Notes: generated by a model from the sequence alone, not told the origin. A stretch of 64,000 nucleotides of DNA from Candidatus Heimdallarchaeota archaeon (GCA_020353515.1 CP070695.1:4721414-4785413); one strand, 5' to 3'. Shown: positions 9,722-21,409, numbered from the stretch's first letter. Program-made: numbers and translations.

Positions 9722-10159
9722 TTATTTCTTTTCTAACAAAGTTTGAATGTCAATTATAAAGAATTGAGATTCGTTGATGAATTCTTTAATGTTAATTGCT
9801 AGGAGAGAGCGTAAACTATATTGGCCATGAATTATCTTTAAAGTATCCAATGCTGTTCGTAAGCGGCGAGAAAATTCGAACTGAGATGGTATTAAACCCC
9901 TCTCTTCTAATGAATATATATCGGTAATTCTTTGTTCATAAGCTGCCATTGGTAGGAAAAGACTAGATTCCTCCATGTGGCTTTGAAATGATGTATCACT
10001 TAATCTACCCAGTTTTTCAATTAATGCGTCTGCTGCTACTATCATACTTAGGACAATCAACTTTATTGCAAAGAGCTTATCCAATGTTGACTTCGCATTT
10101 ACGTATGTTCGGATAGAACTATTCAGATACGTATATGAATCATCAAAAACTGATGCCAA
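9722..10159 (-). CDS. Hypothetical all-helical protein, possibly HEPN/PaREP1-like
   Basis: 145-aa ORF with amphipathic helices; AADALIEKLG and IIHGQY only weakly recall HEPN. Confidence 0.5.
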   Translation of the reverse strand: MASVFDDSYTYLNSSIRTYVNAKSTLDKLFAIKLIVLSMIVAADALIEKLGRLSDTSFQSHMEESSLFLPMAAYEQRITDIYSLEERGLIPSQFEFSRRLRTALDTLKIIHGQYSLRSLLAINIKEFINESQFFIIDIQTLLEKK

Positions 10160-10323: not shown

Positions 10324-10743
10324 TTATTCCCCAATAATAGTGACATATAATTGTCGTTTTCGTGATTTCACATCCAACTCCATGAAGGCGATTTGTTGCC
10401 AAGTCCCGTGAATGAGACGTCCTTGATTAATCGGAATTGTCAGAGAAGGTCCTAATAAAGATGCTCTAACATGTGAATGACCATTGCCATCATGCCATGT
10501 CTGTTCATGGAAATAGGCTAGAGATTTAGGTGCGATACGCTCTAAGAAGTCTGGTATATCACGAATAAGACCCGGTTCAAACTCGAGAGTTATAATAGCT
10601 CCTGTTGATCCCCCAACAAAAACTGTTACAATCCCTTTGGTTATTTTAGATTGACGAACCAGACGTTCCAACTCAGATGTTATGTCCACAATTTCGGTTT
10701 CATGCGTTTCTTTTAATAGTATCTCGGATTGATAGACCGTCAT
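10324..10743 (-). CDS. yjbQ: YjbQ/UPF0047 family protein
   Basis: EIVDIT, EFEPGL, DGNGHSHVRASLLGPS, GTWQQI. Confidence 0.93.
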   Translation of the reverse strand: MTVYQSEILLKETHETEIVDITSELERLVRQSKITKGIVTVFVGGSTGAIITLEFEPGLIRDIPDFLERIAPKSLAYFHEQTWHDGNGHSHVRASLLGPSLTIPINQGRLIHGTWQQIAFMELDVKSRKRQLYVTIIGE

Positions 10744-10860: not shown

Positions 10861-13299
10861 TTACTCTTCGTTGATTATTGTGACTGTGAATGATTGCCTC
10901 GTACTATACCCAAGTACATCATAAACGGTAACAACAACAAGATATTTCCCAGGATTAGAGTATTCATGAGTTATAGACGCTTGAACATTTCTCAAAACCT
11001 TCTTTCCCCTCATTTCACGATAGGAATACCACTTTGCTTCAAATTGTCCGTTCTGATGATCCCAATCTATTGCCCAAAAATCAATGAAGTTAATAAAATC
11101 ATGAGTTATTCTTATATCTATGGGTTTGCTCAGACTAAAGGCTACAATGGTTATCTTTAGCTTTCTTCCTACAACTTTTGTTTCTAATCTAACCATTGGA
11201 TTTGTCATTTCACCTTTCGGTGTATGAGAAGGAGAAAGGGAATCTGATGAATCTATCGTATTTAAAATTTCGAAGGGCATATTATTGGGGATCTTCAGAA
11301 GTCTCTTCCTTACTTCATGTATTGAATATTTACCAATGTCAACCCCTACCCACATTCTTCCCAACTTCTCTGCAACTGCAAGTGCAGTTCCAGATCCACA
11401 GAAGAAATCAGCAATTATATCCCCTTTTTCAGTAGAAATTTCTATAATTCGTGTTAAAAGAGCTTCAGAATTTTCAGTTGGATATAAAGTCTTCTTTAGT
11501 TTTTCATAACCTGCGATGTCAATCCAGAGATTGTCACTGGAATACTGTATTTCTGCTGTATCCTGGTTCTTTCTTCTCTTTTTTTTAATTGTTGATGACT
11601 TTAATTGCGCTGATTCACTGTTTTGATAAGCAAAAACTGAATCTGAATGTACTATCAAATGTGTCTGATTATAGGCTTGTTTTAATGATAAATTTTTCTT
11701 CATTCTTCGCACTAAAAACTCATTGACAAAGTTTTGAGAGCCAAAAACTTCGTCTAAAACCATTCTAGCATAATGACCAAAATGGTAATCAAAGCGCACA
11801 AAAATAAGCCCATCATCCTGAAGAAGGGATCTCATCGGTTGAATACGCTTCTTAAACCATTGTTTAAAGAATTCAATAGGATCTGGAACCTCAATGACAT
11901 TTTTATAAGCCAAGTCCTCAATCGGAAAGACAATATTCTCTCCAGCGTTAAATTCCTGCCCTTCTGATAAACCAATGGGAATTATAATTTTTTCATTTGC
12001 TCCAGTGAAAAAGGGAGGATCGATATATATTATTTTCAGTTTTTTTTGTATTTTCTGATTCAAGCACGGTAATACTTCAAAAACATCCCCTAAAATCAAC
12101 ATATTCGCCCATTCATCAGATTTTTCTTTATTAGAGCTTGAAATTTGACCTAGATACCTTTCAATTAACTTCAGTGAAAATCTATTCGTAGAAGAAAAAT
12201 CGTTTACTGTGTCAATGGCATCATTTTTGGGATAAAGAGAGAGTGGAAAATCAGGTAAAGATTCACAATTATACGCAGAAAAGAATGTTCCTTTATCCTT
12301 AAGTAATTCCATTATAAGTTTAAAGGCGTATTGATCTTCCTCTAATCCTATCCATTTCAATCTCAATTGCTCTGCAATTATTAAAGACATTCCTAGATTA
12401 GTAGATAGATCTAAAAAGAGTTCCTGCTCATTTAAACACATTCTAAGCAGTCTTGTGTAAAAATCTGAAGAACTTGTAAAATATTTATTCACCCATTGAT
12501 AGCTGCAAATATCTAGCCAGTTAGAGTCAATAATCTGTCCCTTTTTTTGGGGAACCCAGTATTCAGGATTCCCCTTCCTATTCAATCGGATCTGACCTTT
12601 TGTACATAAATCAAGAATAGCCTCCTGTTTCAATTTCCAATGAGTTCCTGGGGGAGGCGTTAAAATAATCTCCCCAATGTCTTCAAAAATAAATTTTTTA
12701 GGATTACCCTGTCCTTTAGAGACAAAAGAATGCCAATACCCACCACTTTCTTTTTCATTTAACACAGGATTAATTCGCGGATTAAGATTTTGAGAATAAA
12801 GGAGAATAAAATTGGTTCTTTCAAACACTGTAGAATTGGGGGTGTACCAAACTTTATAGGGAGAATCAATTATTATTTCATTAACAAACCGATCAGAACC
12901 AAAGATGACATCCATTCTAGATTTCAAACCTGACTTTATTGTCCCATTTACCTTGATTGCGATGAATCCCTCCTCATGTAACACTAGTTTGCACCTATCT
13001 AGCAACTGTTGAGTTTTTCTCCAGAATTCGTTATTAATTTCCTTTTTTTCAGGTAATTTGGAATATTCTTCTCTTCTTTCCATTACAATTTCTTTGATAT
13101 CTTCGACCAGCTCTATTTTTGTTGGCTGATAATACATTGATAGATCCAAAAAGATTAACCGAGGATTTAAGCTCTTAAAAAATGATTTAAGATTCTCAAG
13201 GATATTGATTTTCGATCCTAATAGAATTAACTTATTGGTATCTTCAGGATGATTATCTTCTAAATGTTTAATCTCTGTCATTGATGAAGCGTGGATCAT
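10861..13299 (-). CDS. Beta-class (Mod-like) DNA methyltransferase: degenerate N-terminal MTase copy, intact MTase copy, C-terminal Ig/PKD-like domain
   Basis: Intact IYIDPPFF, YPTENSEALL and DFFCGSGT in the second half; degenerate equivalents (IFLDLSM, FLDLSTNLG) in the first half. Confidence 0.88.
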   Translation of the reverse strand: MIHASSMTEIKHLEDNHPEDTNKLILLGSKINILENLKSFFKSLNPRLIFLDLSMYYQPTKIELVEDIKEIVMERREEYSKLPEKKEINNEFWRKTQQLLDRCKLVLHEEGFIAIKVNGTIKSGLKSRMDVIFGSDRFVNEIIIDSPYKVWYTPNSTVFERTNFILLYSQNLNPRINPVLNEKESGGYWHSFVSKGQGNPKKFIFEDIGEIILTPPPGTHWKLKQEAILDLCTKGQIRLNRKGNPEYWVPQKKGQIIDSNWLDICSYQWVNKYFTSSSDFYTRLLRMCLNEQELFLDLSTNLGMSLIIAEQLRLKWIGLEEDQYAFKLIMELLKDKGTFFSAYNCESLPDFPLSLYPKNDAIDTVNDFSSTNRFSLKLIERYLGQISSSNKEKSDEWANMLILGDVFEVLPCLNQKIQKKLKIIYIDPPFFTGANEKIIIPIGLSEGQEFNAGENIVFPIEDLAYKNVIEVPDPIEFFKQWFKKRIQPMRSLLQDDGLIFVRFDYHFGHYARMVLDEVFGSQNFVNEFLVRRMKKNLSLKQAYNQTHLIVHSDSVFAYQNSESAQLKSSTIKKKRRKNQDTAEIQYSSDNLWIDIAGYEKLKKTLYPTENSEALLTRIIEISTEKGDIIADFFCGSGTALAVAEKLGRMWVGVDIGKYSIHEVRKRLLKIPNNMPFEILNTIDSSDSLSPSHTPKGEMTNPMVRLETKVVGRKLKITIVAFSLSKPIDIRITHDFINFIDFWAIDWDHQNGQFEAKWYSYREMRGKKVLRNVQASITHEYSNPGKYLVVVTVYDVLGYSTRQSFTVTIINEE

Positions 13300-13318: not shown

Positions 13319-14599
13319 TTAATTTATTTCATCATTTATTGCCATCAAAATCCTTTTACTGCTTTTTAAATATAATGTTAAAGCTAGTGTTCCTAATAAA
13401 ATCACTAAACTGGATACTAAAAAAGCAATACGATACGCAACGACTGTTGGCTCCCCTAAGAATATCAATAGATCTGCTACAGGCCCTCCTACAATGAATC
13501 CAGCTAATCCCCACCCTGTAGCCAATGTAATGTTAAAAACAGCAAATCCTGTACCCCTTAATTCGTCAGGTAACAAATCTGCTGTATAAGCAAAAGAAAC
13601 GCTCTGTAATAAAGAAGAACATCCACCTAAAAGCGAGTAGATGATTGCGATAATGAGGAATGGCTGGTTTCCTAATAAAAAGAAAAGGAAATAACATATT
13701 CCTGCCCCAAATCCAGTAAGTACAACTATGGGGATTCTACCAATTTTATCCGAAATTCTTCCCCCAATAGGAGCAATGAGTCCTCCTGTTAAAGAAAAGA
13801 GAATAAGTAAATAACTAATAAAAGTGTTATCAAAGCTTAAGCCAGTTGGATCATTAGAATAATAGAGAAATATTTGGGTACTAGATGAAATTCCAATTAC
13901 TAATAATCCAATACATAGAATAAAAATTAAATACGAGCGGTTGGTTAATAACTCACGAATAGCCTTAGAAACTATTGTAGTTCGATCAAAATCGATCTTC
14001 TCGACTTGAGGTGAAAATTGAATAACCGTTGCACACAAGATCATCAAGATTACAACTACATAAAAGATCGTTCCTTCACTAAATCCTAGTCCATCACGAT
14101 AAAGAAGTCCGCTTAATAAGAAACCCACAATTTGTCCAATTAACCCAAATCCGTCTATAAAACCAACGAGTTGTCCACGTTGGTTTCCTTCTGTAGCCTG
14201 TGCAACAAGAAATCTTACTCCTAAATCGCTCATAGACCAAAATATTTCGAGAATTGATAAGAGAATTATCATAAGAAAAGCAGCACCAATTTTAGATCCC
14301 AATTCTAGGAGAAAATAATGTCCAATGAATGCAAGAAGGTATGTAAACGCTGCAATCAATTCTCCACGAACAACATATGGTCTAGCTAAAGAAGGACGAT
14401 CATTAAGTCGTGGACCCCAAAGCTTGAGTTGCCCAAATGTCGATCCAATTAGATTGGCAGTCCCTAGTAAGGCAGCAAGAGTGTTTGGTAACCCTAGGAA
14501 TGTTCTAAGATAGAGATAAAAGAAGGCGTAAAAGACAGCTCGTCTTAAGAATGAAATGAATTGAAAAATGCCAATTGGAAAAATAGTTCGAATACTCAA
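13319..14599 (-). CDS. MFS transporter
   Basis: About 12 TM helices, motif A GRISDKIGR, RGQLVG and LRGTGFA. Confidence 0.9.
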   Translation of the reverse strand: MSIRTIFPIGIFQFISFLRRAVFYAFFYLYLRTFLGLPNTLAALLGTANLIGSTFGQLKLWGPRLNDRPSLARPYVVRGELIAAFTYLLAFIGHYFLLELGSKIGAAFLMIILLSILEIFWSMSDLGVRFLVAQATEGNQRGQLVGFIDGFGLIGQIVGFLLSGLLYRDGLGFSEGTIFYVVVILMILCATVIQFSPQVEKIDFDRTTIVSKAIRELLTNRSYLIFILCIGLLVIGISSSTQIFLYYSNDPTGLSFDNTFISYLLILFSLTGGLIAPIGGRISDKIGRIPIVVLTGFGAGICYFLFFLLGNQPFLIIAIIYSLLGGCSSLLQSVSFAYTADLLPDELRGTGFAVFNITLATGWGLAGFIVGGPVADLLIFLGEPTVVAYRIAFLVSSLVILLGTLALTLYLKSSKRILMAINDEIN

Positions 14600-14726: not shown

Positions 14727-16328
14727 TTACAATATTAATGACTTCTTCTTTATCCATAATTTATAATAGATGAGTAGAATTAGTCCAATCTGAAATCCAA
14801 TAAGTGAAATTTCAGTTGTTGAAGAAGAAGTTAATGTTGGTTCTCTTGGTATACCAGATAGTATCTCTTCTATTTGTTCAACTTGAATAATTGAGTTCCA
14901 ATCTGAACTGAATGTTATTCTATAGAGTCCACCTTCAGCAAAATAATGAATTGGGTATTCAGAACCATACAAAAACTTTAAAGTAGTTTTAGCACCTATA
15001 GGGATAATTATTTGTCGGTTATGATAATAAAATCTAAAAACATCAGCAGGAAAAGGTTCTCCACTAAAAGCGTTACATCGTTTCGGAATTAATAATCCCC
15101 CACCATCTTGAGGAGAGATTCCCATGAGAAATAAAGTCATACAACCTTCAGTAGTAGCATAATCAGTGTACACAGGTTTTTCTGCGGCCAATGTAAACCT
15201 AAATGTTTCAGAATCGTACAATCCTGCCTCGGGTCTTAATAGAGCTTGCCATGCCTGGATGACTTTTTCTCCTTCAAGCATCCTTTGCATGTGAAGTTTA
15301 TTTGTTTTATTAAAATGAGCGAAATACGTATGCAATAACATCCAAGCATCAAGGGTTCCAAATAATTCCCTTCGATTTGACCCCTTACTATGAACGACAA
15401 CATTAGCTCTCCATTGATGAGAATCCCATGAATTAACTAAATATCGATTTTGCAGATCTATATAGACCCTATCCCAATTTTGAAGGGTTCCGTTTAACCT
15501 ACGGAGTTTATCAAAATTAAAAAATACTTCAATTGCATCCCATTCCCAGGTTTTCCAACTTCTTGCATAATCGTAACCATTTTTGTGTTCATTCCAATAA
15601 TAAGTATTTAGATCCAACCATTCCTGGAACGCATATTCTAAGGCTTCTTCTAGGCTTGTTTCGTTGAACAATATTGTAAAACAATTAGCAAGATTTGCTG
15701 TACTCATCCATCTTGTATTAAACAAGTCTTTAGTTGAATTAGTATCAGGATTACACTCATAAAAAGCTCTAGAATTGGTAATCCTACAGTTTCTTAATCC
15801 CTCAAAAGCTGATGTAGCATTCCATTTTTCAGTTAAATAATTCAATTCTTTGGCATATCGATAACCATATAGAGTATATTGCCTCCACATATTAAAATAA
15901 TGGTCACTTTGCGTCACTGGTAACGAATAATTCTCAAACATTGGTGTCTGGTTCAATGCCCATTTAACAACTTCATCAATCATGAGTGGAGAATAGTTCA
16001 ACAATTCTGAATATCTCTTTGTATAAATTATTCCCTGCCAATCGTTATTTGACTGGTATTTGGTTAAGATTTTTGTGAGATCTGAAACGTTTACTTTTCC
16101 AAGCACTATTCCTCTAGCAAAGACATTCATATCGGAAGTCCAATCTGTTATTGTATTCGTTGATAAAAAAATCTTATCTGCTAAAATATCTGATTTTAGC
16201 TTATATTGAGGATTAATATCCGTTTCACAATTGATCTGGGATTTTGAAATTTCAACAATGAAGGCAAATCCAACAATAAGGGTTACTGAATACAAAAAAA
16301 GGTATTGTTTTAACTTCAGTAGTTTCAT
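14727..16328 (-). CDS. Secreted/surface protein of unknown function with C-terminal anchor
   Basis: N-terminal signal peptide, Trp/Tyr/Asn-rich body with N-x-S/T sequons, Ser/Thr linker, TM helix and KKK tail. Confidence 0.75.
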   Translation of the reverse strand: MKLLKLKQYLFLYSVTLIVGFAFIVEISKSQINCETDINPQYKLKSDILADKIFLSTNTITDWTSDMNVFARGIVLGKVNVSDLTKILTKYQSNNDWQGIIYTKRYSELLNYSPLMIDEVVKWALNQTPMFENYSLPVTQSDHYFNMWRQYTLYGYRYAKELNYLTEKWNATSAFEGLRNCRITNSRAFYECNPDTNSTKDLFNTRWMSTANLANCFTILFNETSLEEALEYAFQEWLDLNTYYWNEHKNGYDYARSWKTWEWDAIEVFFNFDKLRRLNGTLQNWDRVYIDLQNRYLVNSWDSHQWRANVVVHSKGSNRRELFGTLDAWMLLHTYFAHFNKTNKLHMQRMLEGEKVIQAWQALLRPEAGLYDSETFRFTLAAEKPVYTDYATTEGCMTLFLMGISPQDGGGLLIPKRCNAFSGEPFPADVFRFYYHNRQIIIPIGAKTTLKFLYGSEYPIHYFAEGGLYRITFSSDWNSIIQVEQIEEILSGIPREPTLTSSSTTEISLIGFQIGLILLIYYKLWIKKKSLIL

Positions 16329-16402: not shown

Positions 16403-17476
16403 TCAAGATAAAATTGAATTAAGAGACAAATTTTTAGATTCTTTTGATTTAACGACGTTATTTAGAGATGTTTTAAAAGATAAAGCAGCCCAATAGTTAA
16501 AAATCAGTCTAAGATTTCCTGAAGTTCGTAATAGGAGCTCCAAATCATAAACTGAAGGTTGAGTTTTTTTATCCCTTAATTTCTCTAGTAGTTTTCCAAT
16601 TGTAGGCAAATCTTTCTCCATTTTATTTTTTAGCCGTTTCGGTTGATTATCGGGGAGGAGTAAAGCATCAAGGTTCTCCAATCCTCCTGATTTATTATCG
16701 ATTTCTTGAAGGATTTTGATAACTATATCTTTTTCAAATCCTTCACTAATTCTATGATGTGTTCCCCGCCATTTTGTCAAATTTCCCACTCCACGTTCAC
16801 CGCCTTTCGGTAAAAGCACCATATTTGACCCTGTGATACGCCAACGAGCAGAATCACTTCCATCGACTTTTTCTGCAAGTTTGTTGATAAGACTAGGTGC
16901 TCCTACTCCCAAAGCCCAAATTTTAACTTTTTCTAAAGCATCATACTGTCTTAGGATTGTCTTCAATTCATCGAGGACTGGAAATAATCGATTTGCGTGT
17001 CCTCCTCCTTTCCTCATCAAAGGAACAAGACGGCCAATGAAAAACCATTCAGGAAAACCCTCATTCAAGATAATTTCTCTCAATATTTCAACTCTGTCAT
17101 AAGGAACAACAGGTTGCACTTCTAAGGAGTATAGTTCTCTATAGTTTACTAAAATCTTGTCATCAGGAAAATCCAAAGTTATTTTTAGAATAGATGGATC
17201 CTGTTTAGTTATTTCTTGATATATCCTCTTCAATTCGTCTATGTCTAGATCTATCTTTTTTTTTCTATTTAATGCCGAGAAAGCACCAGAATCAAGTAAG
17301 ATTTTACCATCCCATCCAAGAGTATCATGAATCCCCTTTTTTACTACCTTTTGAAACAATCTAGGAGAACTAAAGAAGTCTATTGCGGATATCATCAATG
17401 CATCTGGTTTCAATGCCCAATCGTAAGTCCAAGGGCGAAATATCGCATTGATAGGAGTGCCAATAGCAAAGATCAT
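16403..17476 (-). CDS. TGT/DpdA-like transglycosylase family protein
   Basis: LLDSGAFS, ITLD, IGRLVP, WALGVG and DGSDS motifs of the TGT barrel; no PUA domain or Zn site. Confidence 0.75.
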   Translation of the reverse strand: MIFAIGTPINAIFRPWTYDWALKPDALMISAIDFFSSPRLFQKVVKKGIHDTLGWDGKILLDSGAFSALNRKKKIDLDIDELKRIYQEITKQDPSILKITLDFPDDKILVNYRELYSLEVQPVVPYDRVEILREIILNEGFPEWFFIGRLVPLMRKGGGHANRLFPVLDELKTILRQYDALEKVKIWALGVGAPSLINKLAEKVDGSDSARWRITGSNMVLLPKGGERGVGNLTKWRGTHHRISEGFEKDIVIKILQEIDNKSGGLENLDALLLPDNQPKRLKNKMEKDLPTIGKLLEKLRDKKTQPSVYDLELLLRTSGNLRLIFNYWAALSFKTSLNNVVKSKESKNLSLNSILS

Positions 17477-17485
17477 TATTGTACC

Positions 17486-18010
17486 TCAAAATAGGAAATC
17501 TTCAAGGGATTTGGTTCTTGACAAATTCTCCAAGAATCGCACTAATTTTTGTTGTCCAACCCCAAGTCCACCCATATTTTCCACTATAATTTTTGTATCT
17601 ATATGAGTTTTTAAACCTTCAATAGCCTTTAAGTAGGTTTTTCCCATTAATATATAGATGTAGTCAAATTCCTCCTCTTTATTCCATCTGATTACCTCTT
17701 GGATTACCTGTGAATTATGTTTTCTAGCAAGATTTTCAGTCATTTTCAGATCATAATCTTTAATTAAATCAGTACTCCTAAGGAAGCCATATTTCGCAGA
17801 TACTATCCCTAAAAATAGGTGGGAACTCCATCTCCCCTCACGCTTAGCTTTCCTAATTACCTGAAACATTGGGCCTTTATAGGCCTCTGATGCACGTATT
17901 TCACGATTCTGTAACTCCAAGGCTTTTTTCTTACCACATGATATGATAAGTAAGACTTTTGGCTTTTTCAACAGAAGTACTCTCAAAAATAAAATATCTC
18001 TAAAGGTCAA
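17486..18010 (-). CDS. DUF6884-like (YaaA-related) protein
   Basis: IISCGKKK, A..AYKGPMF, VSAKYG, YDLKM, MGKTY, GGLGVGQQ; true start may be slightly downstream. Confidence 0.7.
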   Translation of the reverse strand: MTFRDILFLRVLLLKKPKVLLIISCGKKKALELQNREIRASEAYKGPMFQVIRKAKREGRWSSHLFLGIVSAKYGFLRSTDLIKDYDLKMTENLARKHNSQVIQEVIRWNKEEEFDYIYILMGKTYLKAIEGLKTHIDTKIIVENMGGLGVGQQKLVRFLENLSRTKSLEDFLF

Positions 18011-18909
18011 GATAACATTTTTTGGAGTCGTTCAGCATATTGATTACTTTTCTCATCGGCACCTGTAATTTTAATGCCTGATGGCTCTTGAACTCCTAAT
18101 TTTAGCTCTACAGCTCTTGCTATCTGTTCTTGTTCAAATACAGGGCCATTTGCTACTTCAGGTGTTGTACCAAGATCACGAAGGATTGTTACACCCACAG
18201 CATCAATAGCTATTCGATCTGTCCCTGCTAACATCACATGAGGATGTTCAAGTTTTCCTCTTGCTGGTCCTCCTTCAACAAAAGCGTCTATACCATCCAA
18301 AATCACTAATGTAGGAGTGTAAATCTGATTAATTTCAGCGATAAGTTTTCGCTGATGTGGAGAGGAATGAAGTTCACGCATGAATTCATAACCTTGTCGG
18401 GGGACAAAACCGACCGCTAATTTCAGTGAGAAAGTAAAATGTCCTCCAAATTGATGTGTTTTAAGACAGGGTAACGCAATAATAGCGTCTACACTTTGAA
18501 TGAATTTAGGAAAGAGAAAACCATTTTTCCAATTAGAATCACTCTGTTGGACTGGCTGAAACTGAATCCACTCTGAGTGAGGTAAGGAGGATAAATCTAG
18601 AATATCAAAACCTCCAATCTCTTTCTGTAGGGCAAATAATCCTTTGGTTTCCATAGTATCATGCGTATCTGCTGGGCCAGCTCGCTCTACAACAGTAATT
18701 TTCTTTACTCCACAAATCTTAAGGTGAGTGATTAATACTCGAATAATCTCAATATCTGTCGAAGCAGGGGGAGGGTCTGCTGTATTAAAATTGGGCTTAA
18801 TAGCGACTCTTTTACCTTTTAAAGCCTCAAAAAGAGACTTATAATAAGAGAAAATTATTTTCATCCCTTTGATTCTGTCATCAGTTTTAACAAGGAAGAC
18901 TTCAGTCAT
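18007..18909 (-). CDS. DUF362 family protein
   Basis: VAIKPNF, LPCLKTH, TFSLKLAVG, ILDG, DRIAIDAVG. Confidence 0.85.
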   Translation of the reverse strand: MTEVFLVKTDDRIKGMKIIFSYYKSLFEALKGKRVAIKPNFNTADPPPASTDIEIIRVLITHLKICGVKKITVVERAGPADTHDTMETKGLFALQKEIGGFDILDLSSLPHSEWIQFQPVQQSDSNWKNGFLFPKFIQSVDAIIALPCLKTHQFGGHFTFSLKLAVGFVPRQGYEFMRELHSSPHQRKLIAEINQIYTPTLVILDGIDAFVEGGPARGKLEHPHVMLAGTDRIAIDAVGVTILRDLGTTPEVANGPVFEQEQIARAVELKLGVQEPSGIKITGADEKSNQYAERLQKMLS

Positions 18910-19036
18910 CTTAGAACCACCTGGTCTGTAAAATCTGTTATGAACACTTATCCCCTTAAATTAATAAGTTGCTAGAATTCCCTTATGAGAACTAATCATC
19001 AATATCTAGATTATTAGGTGTATCGAGGTAGTACCT

Positions 19037-19972
19037 TTGCGCTTATATTTAGGCGTTGTTCCAGGAATTTTTCCATGGTTGAAGGAGGACATTATTCACA
19101 AAAATATGACACGTATTTATGCAGGAGTTATTTTTTCATACTGGTCATTTCGAAAAAAAATCCAAAATATAATCTCGAAAGGACTTCATGATTATTTTTC
19201 TTTTGATGGACCTATTATGGTAGATTCTGGGGCTTATAGTGCCTTTAATTCTGGTGTAAATATTGACATTGACGATTATTTGTCTTTTATATCGAAAATT
19301 GATATGAAAGACGATGATACTATTGTTAATCTTGATGTGATTCAAAATCCAAGAAAGTCAAAACAGAATTGGAGATACTTAACGAATAAGTTGGATATCA
19401 ACGTTTTGCCAGTGATTCATCTACCTGAAGCAGGAAATTCATATTTCTCTGAAGATTATATAGGACTGGGTGGGATGGTGCCAGCATTCAAAATAAATCA
19501 AACTGGGAGTGTGAAAAATGTAGCTGCTTGGTTGGTTTCATTAGATCAGACCGTAAACAAAAAGTATCATGGATTTGGTGTTGGAAGTCCATATCATCAA
19601 ATTGCATTTCTTGACTTCCTTTATTCGGTAGATTGGATTGGTTGGCGAAGGAATGCAGCAGTCTGTTCATGTTACACCCCTGAAGGATCAATTTATATTC
19701 ATGAGGCTCGTAAAAAGAAAAAGAAGGGAAGAAGAATTACAGAGGAGATATTTAATCTTTATGCTCCCCCATTCATCGATTCATACGAGATGTTATATCG
19801 AGAGGGCACAGAGGGGTGGGTAAATCGTGCATTGTGGAATGTATGGTGGTTTCTACTTGCAAAAGACTATAAAGGTCAAATTGAAGTCTCTAGCTATGTT
19901 CTTTCTTTGAAAAAAACAATTCGTCAAACAGAACTGGAATATAGGACAATGGATCTTGGTCAATTCTTATGA
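19037..19972 (+). CDS. Second TGT/DpdA-like transglycosylase family protein
   Basis: MVDSGAYS, VNLD, LPVIH, IGLGGMVP, YHGFGVG, SVD. Confidence 0.78.
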   Translation: MRLYLGVVPGIFPWLKEDIIHKNMTRIYAGVIFSYWSFRKKIQNIISKGLHDYFSFDGPIMVDSGAYSAFNSGVNIDIDDYLSFISKIDMKDDDTIVNLDVIQNPRKSKQNWRYLTNKLDINVLPVIHLPEAGNSYFSEDYIGLGGMVPAFKINQTGSVKNVAAWLVSLDQTVNKKYHGFGVGSPYHQIAFLDFLYSVDWIGWRRNAAVCSCYTPEGSIYIHEARKKKKKGRRITEEIFNLYAPPFIDSYEMLYREGTEGWVNRALWNVWWFLLAKDYKGQIEVSSYVLSLKKTIRQTELEYRTMDLGQFL

Positions 19973-20068
19973 GAGATTAAAATGAATGACAACCTTGAAA
20001 TATATTCCCAAGTATCAAGTAGTATATTTCACTTGAAACCGTCAATTAGTCTTTATCATACATCGTTA

Positions 20069-21409
20069 TTAGAAAGGACGACAATCTTCCTTGATTCTTG
20101 ATATAGCTTCTTCAACCCTTTGAATGGCTAGTTCTTGTCTTTCTTTTGATAGTGCTGGTTTCTTTCTTAAGCAGGTTCCCTCACTTTTTTTCACGTGATC
20201 TAGATAGCCAATCATCGTTTCTTCAATATATTCATAGATCAATGCATCTGCTTGACGTTCAAACTCTTTATCCTTTGTAAAAAAGATTAAATGCTCAGAA
20301 AATATATTTCCAATGTCTTTACTAGTAGATTTACTTGTTAGATCAATGTTTCGTGAAAGCGATAATTGATGGGTTAATCCTACGAGTTCCCCTAGTTTTT
20401 TAAAGTGGAGATGAGATTTTATCCTCTCATATTCTAAACAACTATCACCAATTACTATACAAATAACGCTTCCGAGTTTAACTATCCTTACCATCTCAGA
20501 TATTGTATGGAACATATCAAAAAAGTATTCAGTTAAGAGTCTCCATCTATTACTAATATGATGACCATGAGCTCCAATTTCAACTTTAGCGAAACGACGA
20601 TAATCATATCCAAGAACACTCATATTATATTGATGAATACGATTATAATCTAGTGCATTAACATAGGGGGGGGATGTAACAATACAATCAATAGTTGCAC
20701 TAGGAATAAACGATAAATCTCGCGCATCTCCTAATTTGATATCATCTTGCATCCCATTATTAAAATCTGCAATCGTAAGATTGAATTCTTTCATAATTTT
20801 TATCATAGACTTAATTTTGGCTCGAAATGTATTCCAAATGCTCATTTTCTTCCAATTTCTGGATTCTGTTAAGGTAGAAATCGTAGATGATAAACCCACC
20901 TTAAAAAAGTCCTGAAATTCGTCATATATGATTTCATTCTCAATATAATCAAGAATTAGTGAAATTAATCTAGTATTGTCTTCAGTGAATCGCTTGGACA
21001 AATTTCTTTTAGGAAAAATGAATTTTCTTGAAGTGTATTGTTCCTTGTTAAATAGAAATGACTTTATTTCAGATTGAAATTGAGCATGAAATTCTTTCCA
21101 AAGTTTCGTGAGTATTTCACAATCTAGTGGTTTTGTTTTTACTCGTGATAACAAAATGGCTAGAGGATTCTGATCGACGCCACCTGAATGATTTTGAGAT
21201 AATACTCCTTCGACTACTGATGTACCACATCCTACAAAAGGATCAAAGATTCTAGATCCACCTGAATTGAGAAACATGTTATAAATTGTATAAGGTATTT
21301 GTGGGATAAAGCGTGCGGGGTAAGAGTGATATTTATGAGTAAGTGTCTGTGTGGAAGCTCCTGGAAAATCCCAATCGACTCCAATGATTTTTTCCTTTGG
21401 AAAATCCAT
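20069..21409 (-). CDS. DNA methyltransferase, probably N4-cytosine (alpha class)
   Basis: THKYHSYPARFIPQI, DPFVGCGT, GDAR, VTSPPY, VIGDS. Confidence 0.9.
   Translation of the reverse strand: MDFPKEKIIGVDWDFPGASTQTLTHKYHSYPARFIPQIPYTIYNMFLNSGGSRIFDPFVGCGTSVVEGVLSQNHSGGVDQNPLAILLSRVKTKPLDCEILTKLWKEFHAQFQSEIKSFLFNKEQYTSRKFIFPKRNLSKRFTEDNTRLISLILDYIENEIIYDEFQDFFKVGLSSTISTLTESRNWKKMSIWNTFRAKIKSMIKIMKEFNLTIADFNNGMQDDIKLGDARDLSFIPSATIDCIVTSPPYVNALDYNRIHQYNMSVLGYDYRRFAKVEIGAHGHHISNRWRLLTEYFFDMFHTISEMVRIVKLGSVICIVIGDSCLEYERIKSHLHFKKLGELVGLTHQLSLSRNIDLTSKSTSKDIGNIFSEHLIFFTKDKEFERQADALIYEYIEETMIGYLDHVKKSEGTCLRKKPALSKERQELAIQRVEEAISRIKEDCRPF

Follow-up and report, generated by a model that had tools for sequence, protein, structure and literature searches.

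Two divergent zinc-less DpdA-like transglycosylases conserved with a DUF6884 protein and a tandem methyltransferase in one order of Asgard archaea: a candidate DNA base-modification module

Characterised 7-deazaguanine modifications of DNA belong, to our knowledge, either to phages and viruses, where they act against restriction, or to mobile bacterial Dpd restriction-modification islands. The viral DpdA proteins (CAjan, 9g, STSV1/2) are small, at ~290-310 aa, and consist of a Zn-less tRNA-guanine transglycosylase (TGT) barrel, whereas the bacterial systems, such as that of Salmonella Montevideo, combine a TGT-fold DNA transglycosylase with a partner from the YaaA/DpdC superfamily. Bacterial DpdA keeps a Zn site and carries DpdA-specific insertions (PMC10164549). 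A 64,000-nucleotide stretch of the genome of a Candidatus Heimdallarchaeota archaeon (GCA_020353515.1, CP070695.1:4721414-4785413), referred to here as the window, includes two genes, designated TGT-A and TGT-B, that predict proteins of the same fold, together with a gene for a DUF6884 protein and one for a large tandem DNA methyltransferase (Table 1). The arrangement is conserved across one order of Asgard archaea and may represent a nuclease-less, vertically inherited module for base exchange and methylation of the cell's own DNA. Confidence in this reading is moderate, because every functional step is drawn from homology and context.

TGT-B resembles viral DpdA in its size, in its Zn-less barrel and in having the DSG, LD, GG and HGFG motifs, the nucleophile Asp and the C-terminal R..N.W helix. 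It differs in having a chromosomal gene of a cellular host, with vertical inheritance throughout the order, in the lack of preQ0 synthesis genes from both the element and the host, and in being paired with the divergent TGT-A, DUF6884 and the tandem methyltransferase. Like bacterial Dpd, the locus combines predicted TGT-fold enzymes with a YaaA/DpdC-superfamily partner. However, neither TGT-A nor TGT-B is like bacterial DpdA, because the latter keeps the structural Zn site (CxCx2Cx22H) and the specific insertions that both of them lack. No nuclease, helicase, DpdB ATPase or DpdD-K was detected in a PADLOC scan of seven locus proteins and the DpdC matches were weak; the DpdC-like protein is also half the size of DpdC, and the module is not a mobile island. 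The archaeosine TGT (ArcTGT, also TgtA; 1iq8) has its three catalytic Asp at the same positions as TGT-A and TGT-B, but these lack its Zn site and its C1, C2 and PUA domains and score under the family cut-offs. DUF6884 shares CxxxK and LSAxxG-type motifs with other members of the DUF6884/YaaA families (PF21818/PF03883; YfjM of Bacillus subtilis), from which it differs in being operonic with a DpdA-like enzyme. As judged from sequence, the module appears most like the viral DpdA systems and the DpdA/DpdC part of bacterial Dpd; it fails the defining features of bacterial DpdA (Zn site, DpdB, restriction genes) and those of the tRNA TGTs. A search of the accessible literature turned up no description of it.

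All five open reading frames between positions 16403 and 21409 are intact at the coordinates in Table 1. The initial annotation recognised two divergent TGT-barrel proteins in this segment by DSGAF/DSGAY, LD, LG/FG and late Asp motifs, and motifs, homology and predicted folds agree with that assignment. TGT-A includes DSGAF, LDFP, IGRLVP, LGVGAP and DGSDSARWR, and TGT-B includes DSGAY, NLD, LGGMVP, HGFGVGSP and SVDWIGWRR. The two share 34% identity over the N-terminal 94 aa (BLASTP, E 4e-11), and a profile-profile comparison in hhalign extends the match to 190 columns (probability 97.8%, E 7e-13), pairing DSGAF with DSGAY, LDFP with NLDV, QPVVP with LPVIH, IGRLVP with LGGMVP, WALGVGAP with HGFGIGSP, and DGCDSxRWR with SVDWIGWRR. 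Orthologues of both families are 47-86% identical to the window proteins and retain 46-54 invariant columns, a degree of conservation indicating that the observation is not due to chance. In the alignments of 29 orthologues made for each family, D62, D102 and D208 of TGT-A and D63, D100 and D199 of TGT-B are invariant, and by position they correspond to the TGT general acid/base, base-recognition Asp and nucleophile. Both are hence confirmed as TGT-fold proteins that keep the three catalytic Asp residues.

The binding pockets differ. The Gly-Gly of TGT-B is replaced in TGT-A by Gly-Arg, as first annotated, and this Gly-Arg is invariant in the 29-sequence alignment of its family. H178 of TGT-B, in the HGFG motif, is also invariant and is equated, by motif position only, with H196 of 9g DpdA, the conserved His that precedes the nucleophile strand (PMC6884629), whereas TGT-A has LGVG and no His at this point. 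An insertion of ~45 aa precedes the C-terminal R..FNYW helix of TGT-A. The absence of a PUA domain and of a CxCxxC Zn site, noted at the outset, was borne out: neither PUA nor C2/DUF5591 was found in either protein in the Pfam scan, TGT-A is devoid of Cys over its entire length, and TGT-B has a single CSC that is not conserved.

The AlphaFold models of TGT-A and TGT-B (predicted local distance difference test, pLDDT, 87.7 and 90.5) are both single-domain, and only TGTs occupied the top Foldseek ranks for each. When these predicted models were compared using VIA-align, the best structural match of each was the catalytic domain of ArcTGT (1iq8), with Z 25.1 and root-mean-square deviation 4.3 over 285 aligned residues for TGT-B, and Z 19.3 and 3.0 over 262 for TGT-A. 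Bacterial DpdA (7ui4) followed at Z 21.0 to TGT-B and Z 17.4 to TGT-A. Matches to family models were low. TGT-B scored 16.1 bits against PF01702, under the cut-off of 26.3, and TGT-A had no match in the Pfam scan; the NCBIfam model TIGR00432 (cut-off 350) gave 30.8 bits for TGT-B and 18.5 for TGT-A, in weak matches around the DSGA motif. Sequence searches of the PDB returned marginal TGT matches only (E 0.1-0.9). DUF6610, the DpdA4 of haloviruses, was rejected as it matched neither protein at E <= 0.01 in the Pfam scan.

TGT-B matches phrog_887, a phage family annotated as queuine tRNA-ribosyltransferase, over residues 28-281 (E 2.7e-24), as do all 48 sequences, TGT-B included, of a sampled alignment of its family. 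A search of 1.8 billion representatives with the TGT-B family profile returned 3,624 relatives, mostly of 250-300 aa. In tblastn searches of phage records, TGT-B was 29% identical to DpdA of Sulfolobus virus STSV1/2 (E 1e-12) and 24% identical over 86% of the query to Seuratvirus DpdA, including that of CAjan, which is genetically required for insertion of 7-deazaguanine into phage DNA (PMC6884629). TGT-A, TGT-B, CAjan DpdA and STSV2 DpdA are colinear when aligned, with DSG, LD and the nucleophile Asp invariant and a C-terminal R...N.W helix in common, and the CxCxxC motif is in none of the four. In a quick maximum-likelihood tree with Shimodaira-Hasegawa-like approximate likelihood ratio (SH-aLRT) support, the TGT-B clade (99) lies inside a 44-row group supported at 95 that includes CAjan DpdA, with both the Pfam-type TGTs and the ArcTGT of this genome falling outside. 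TGT-A has its own clade, on a long stem of 1.72, and is sister to the DpdA group at a support of only 80. DpdA2 resembles TGT-A in being without the conserved His (PMC6884629). The original description of both proteins as DpdA-like and not tRNA-type TGTs is supported; both are without a Zn site and a PUA domain, and TGT-B groups with experimentally validated viral DpdA. TGT-B falls in the viral DpdA1-type group, and TGT-A is a much more divergent relative with a rebuilt pocket.

That the catalytic domain of ArcTGT is the top structural match of both proteins would also suit enzymes that modify tRNA or rRNA in addition to ArcTGT, with the methyltransferase neighbours being coincidental. The housekeeping-like vertical inheritance at a fixed site beside TFB and HflX is in keeping with such a role, and these genomes already salvage a precursor for ArcTGT. 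An RNA substrate is nevertheless considered unlikely. The proteins have no PUA, C2 or Zn subdomain and remain under the Pfam and NCBIfam cut-offs for TGTs, TGT-B falls in the clade of DNA-acting viral DpdA, and the conserved neighbours in the operon encode a methyltransferase of DNA type and a YaaA-like DNA-binding protein.

The DUF6884 gene ends 9 nt before TGT-A. Its start was set at that used by the orthologues, and the open reading frame itself extends to 18010. The product scores 51.9 bits against PF21818 (cut-off 30), and SCxxxK and SAKYG are invariant in 38 DUF6884 sequences. For this family the Pfam curators describe CxxxK and LSAxxG motifs and a cleft that resembles that of YaaA and binds DNA with a base flipped; one member, YfjM, had been identified among proteins interacting with abasic and RNA-base lesions (PMC11701544). 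The best PADLOC match of the window protein is PDC-M57A (E 4e-11), followed by a weak match to DpdC (E 5e-4), and 30 of the 38 DUF6884 orthologues match DpdC models (E<=0.01; best 1.8e-6). The statement that canonical dpdB/C partners are lacking is therefore doubtful for DpdC; DpdB went undetected among the seven locus proteins scanned. No similarity was found by BLASTP between DUF6884 and the product of the gene following dpdA in STSV2. On these sequence relationships, the DUF6884 gene does not appear to be a mere bystander, and its product is a predicted remote homologue of DpdC/YaaA.

Outside the order, DUF6884 genes are found in other contexts. A metagenomic 415-aa protein (P0258, L031:1647-2894) is a fusion of a DpdA-like domain and DUF6884, and is encoded downstream of genes for GTP cyclohydrolase I, with which 7-deazaguanine synthesis begins, and a nucleoside deoxyribosyltransferase-like protein. 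The closest DUF6884 genes beyond the order (L033:4210-5441 and L034:2143-3499) overlap an upstream HhH-GPD-like or AGOG-like gene, with scores of 26.1 bits for HhH-GPD and 20.1 bits for AGOG that are at or below the Pfam cut-offs. This suggests a recurrent pair of DNA glycosylase and DUF6884, and what the contexts have in common is a partner enzyme that breaks the N-glycosidic bond in DNA.

The same overlaps could be taken to mean that one or both TGT-fold proteins cleave a damaged or foreign base and that DUF6884 handles the abasic site or covalent intermediate, in which case the locus would serve repair or immunity and not self-marking. The interaction of YfjM with abasic and RNA-base lesions (PMC11701544) is compatible with this, and diverse glycosylases are known to defend against phages that carry 7-deazaguanine (bioRxiv 10.1101/2025.10.29.685425). 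The host is, in addition, unable to synthesise preQ0. However, in the TGT reaction Asp becomes covalently linked to the ribosyl group and an incoming base then resolves this intermediate, and 7-deaza bases are poor leaving groups for the TGT fold. TGT-B also groups with inserting enzymes, the conserved operon methyltransferase fits modification better than repair, and the glycosylase matches are no higher than the Pfam cut-offs. Excision or defence is accordingly given a low probability.

The conserved core comprises TGT-B on one strand and, on the other, DUF6884, TGT-A, a ~800-aa tandem methyltransferase and UPF0047/YjbQ, with UPF0047/YjbQ being only a candidate member of the module. Orthologues were sought in 301 Asgard genomes, and the order concerned, which was named from the source names of the orthologues (Hodarchaeales, Heimdallarchaeota), includes the families f1 and f2. 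The core is syntenic in ~20 genomes of this one Hodarchaeales-type order, in a neighbourhood that includes TFB, HflX and an S8 peptidase; the TFB/HflX flanks hold in all three of the orthologous loci examined (L012, L013 and L014). TGT-A orthologues (E<1e-120) are present in 19/20 f1 and 2/2 f2 genomes, and no strong orthologue was found in any other of the 301. TGT-B is present in 16/20 f1 and 1/2 f2 genomes. The adjacency reported for the window is thus kept across the order. In a genome of the same genus (G244:C1:2081710-2082591), the TGT-A match lies within a 577-aa frame that could be a fusion or upstream read-through.

The two TGT genes co-occur, and in 15 genomes they are on opposite strands, head-to-head and 0.6-1.6 kb apart, with a distance of ~13 kb in a further two. 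Together with the complementary pockets, GG and HGFG in TGT-B versus GR and LGVG in TGT-A, this arrangement would suit a heteromer in which one protein is catalytic and the other auxiliary, like eukaryotic QTRT1/QTRT2. All three catalytic Asp are invariant in TGT-A, however, unlike in a dead subunit, and bacterial DpdA is a monomer (PMC10164549). Furthermore, TGT-A is not adjoined by TGT-B in L013, and no strong TGT-B match was found in three f1 genomes that carry TGT-A, the assemblies of which are fragmented. Such a pair seems improbable. It is far less probable still that the locus is the functionless remnant of an integrated virus, as the frames are intact, with the invariant columns and identities given above maintained over ~20 genomes, and the chromosomal position is fixed with no integrase or other viral genes flanking the module, even though the nearest relatives of TGT-B beyond the order are on short contigs from metagenomes, the genes of which are small and virus-like, and both DUF6884 (phrog_5935) and DpdA (phrog_887) are common in phages.

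A different gene of DpdA type, predicting a PF01702-positive protein of 375-390 aa, occurs in other Asgard families. In L036 (G074:C1:2742000-2753000) this gene is beside genes for a UvrD helicase, a PD-(D/E)XK nuclease and a methyltransferase, and in L037 and L038 it is beside small DUF5591 (ArcS/ArcTGT C2-like) genes. These loci have the appearance of defence-type or ArcS-type modules and differ from the TGT-A/TGT-B locus.

The genome that includes the window has a canonical ArcTGT gene (C1:243097-244077, in a 654-aa open frame) and a gene for a YhhQ/Vut_1 precursor transporter (C1:3762145-3762675, 119 bits). The transporter was detected in 19/21 f1 genomes, and ArcTGT in 20/21 f1 genomes and 23/24 genomes of the order. 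QueC, QueE and QueF were not found in this genome, and a true QueC is present in 0/21 f1 genomes and in only one of the 24 genomes of the order, an f2 member. An apparent QueC in the genome of the window is a ThiI-type PP-loop protein and was discounted. PTPS/QueD-like genes were likewise set aside as evidence for preQ0, being pterin-related in appearance, with one located beside MptE of the pterin pathway. Of the queC, queD and queE genes raised in the initial annotation, queC and queE are absent, and the QueD-like genes appear pterin-related. A search for Q_salvage (PF10343) gave no match, but none was obtained in control genomes either and the search is uninformative. The genotype is that of precursor salvage: without QueC and QueE, these cells would have to obtain any 7-deazaguanine by salvage. 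This removes the objection that 7-deazaguanine is unavailable to these cells. Family f1, a group closely related to eukaryotes, hence has the genotype of salvage-based tRNA modification of the archaeosine type.

If the locus is a module for base exchange and methylation of self DNA, TGT-B would replace guanine in double-stranded DNA with a 7-deazaguanine base, either preQ0 or a relative. Since the genomes encode ArcTGT and a YhhQ-type transporter but neither QueC nor QueE, this base would come from import and not from synthesis. DUF6884, as a predicted DNA-binding enzyme of the YaaA/DpdC superfamily with an invariant Cys-Lys motif, may then act on the base once it is flipped or inserted, for example in a conversion of nitrile to amide like that by DpdC, which turns preQ0-DNA into ADG-DNA. 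TGT-A, which would share a transcript with DUF6884 and the 812-aa tandem methyltransferase, is predicted to be a second catalytically competent transglycosylase, and the changes in its pocket suggest that it uses a different base or acts in a different sequence context. The 812-aa methyltransferase would add N6-methyladenine (m6A) or N4-methylcytosine (m4C). The outcome could be a self mark that protects DNA from nucleases, or an epigenetic signal. The analysis itself shows the predicted folds, homology, catalytic residues, synteny, phyletic pattern and lack of a preQ0 pathway; that DNA is the substrate, which base is used, what reaction DUF6884 performs and what the module is for, we infer. 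A DNA base-exchange or modification module was also the interpretation first placed on these genes, and it is partly supported.

Several observations weigh against the base-exchange and methylation module. We know of no characterised Dpd or phage system that is inherited at a fixed chromosomal position without a nuclease. The characterised DpdA systems have preQ0 synthesis genes in the system or the host, unlike the genomes described here. The match between DUF6884 and DpdC covers only ~60 positions (44-107 of 312-319) at E 1e-3 to 1e-6, and the pairing of DUF6884 with glycosylases and not transglycosylases outside the order points to a more general role at abasic or flipped sites. For TGT-A, the match to phrog_887 is marginal (E 1.3e-3, 22 residues), and with no HGFG His and an Arg in the pocket, it may act on something other than a guanine analogue.

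A more specific proposal is put forward only tentatively, as being rather less probable than the general one. Hodarchaeales-type archaea may put 7-deazaguanine-type bases in place of some guanines in their own chromosomes, in a manner that is lineage-wide, independent of a nuclease and reliant on a salvaged precursor. The two transglycosylases would then serve two bases or two contexts, and DUF6884 would be a new, minimal base-finishing enzyme of the DpdC type.

Table 1. Genes and other features of the TGT-A/TGT-B locus, with positions counted from the first nucleotide of the window.
Feature	Position	Strand	Length	Description
Gene before TFB	9722-10159	-	145 aa	No Pfam match
UPF0047/YjbQ gene	10324-10743	-		PF01894 E 6e-34
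Tandem beta-class N6/N4 DNA methyltransferase	10861-13299	-	812 aa	PF01555 E 7e-42
MFS transporter	13319-14599	-		PF07690 E 8e-40; between TGT-A and 812-aa methyltransferase
Open reading frame	14727-16328	-	533 aa	No match in Pfam, NCBIfam, PADLOC or PHROGs
TGT-A	16403-17476	-	357 aa	Divergent Zn-less DpdA-like transglycosylase paralogue
DUF6884 / YaaA-DpdC-superfamily gene	17486-17971	-	161 aa	PF21818 E 1e-13
DUF362 gene	18007-18909	-		PF04015 E 3e-35; subclade-specific insert between TGT-B and DUF6884
Divergent intergenic region	18910-19036	.	127 bp	Between DUF362-DUF6884-TGT-A operon and TGT-B
TGT-B	19037-19972	+	311 aa	TTG start; predicted viral-type (DpdA1-like) DNA-guanine transglycosylase homologue
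Amino-methyltransferase	20069-21409	-	446 aa	N-terminal FxGxG motif (FDPFVGCGTS), TSPPY; PADLOC MTase_II E 1e-41

The 812-aa methyltransferase lies outside the segment from 16403 to 21409 and is composed of two collinear beta-class copies. It is 42% identical to the product of the gene that abuts TGT-A in L012, and BLASTP with this orthologue also pairs the N-terminal half of the protein with the C-terminal half. It is present in 19/21 f1 genomes and adjoins TGT-A wherever the two are on one contig; in the majority of orthologous loci, the gene immediately following TGT-A encodes this methyltransferase. UPF0047/YjbQ follows the ~800-aa methyltransferase in the window and in L012, L013 and L014, and in the loci examined a gene for a 109-149-aa protein with no family annotation is located between it and TFB.

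The initial annotation placed both TGT genes in one cluster with DUF6884, DUF362 and an SPPY-containing DNA methyltransferase. All of these genes are present, and the TGT/DUF6884 adjacency is conserved, but DUF362 and the SPPY methyltransferase are accessories of a subclade. The distance between TGT-B and TGT-A falls into two classes, ~1.5-1.6 kb in 6-7 genomes and ~0.6 kb in 9, indicating that DUF362 is confined to a subclade, and it is absent from L012. The 446-aa methyltransferase converges on TGT-B and was found, beside TGT-B, in 7/21 f1 genomes. The gene for the MFS transporter is present in L014 and absent from L012 and L013, and gaps of ~1.4 kb elsewhere fit a subclade pattern; a role for it in import of the base is speculation. 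The intergenic region at 18910-19036 is probably a shared promoter region, given the gene coordinates and the head-to-head arrangement across the order.

The 533-aa open reading frame is missing from L012, L013 and L014, including L014 from a close relative, and is treated as an unrelated insertion. Its Atlas model is poor (pLDDT 0.45), with weak look-alikes among alpha/alpha-toroid (GH76/AGE-like) proteins. In L012, from a Heimdall-named genome, genes for an MmeI/Eco57I-like type IIL enzyme and SIR2 are located just upstream of the module (L012:3312-6937).

If the proposal for 7-deazaguanine in chromosomal DNA is correct, this would be the first case of a 7-deazaguanine base as a resident chromosomal mark, fixed, vertically inherited and nuclease-less across a whole archaeal order. 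The mark would depend on salvage of a precursor, as eukaryotes depend on salvaged queuine, and Hodarchaeales-type archaea are among the closest known relatives of eukaryotes. The locus also provides a testable partner and context both for the DUF6884 family and for TGT-A, a paralogue on a long branch whose base pocket is rebuilt, and DUF6884 and TGT-A could be expressed in Escherichia coli, which itself makes preQ0.

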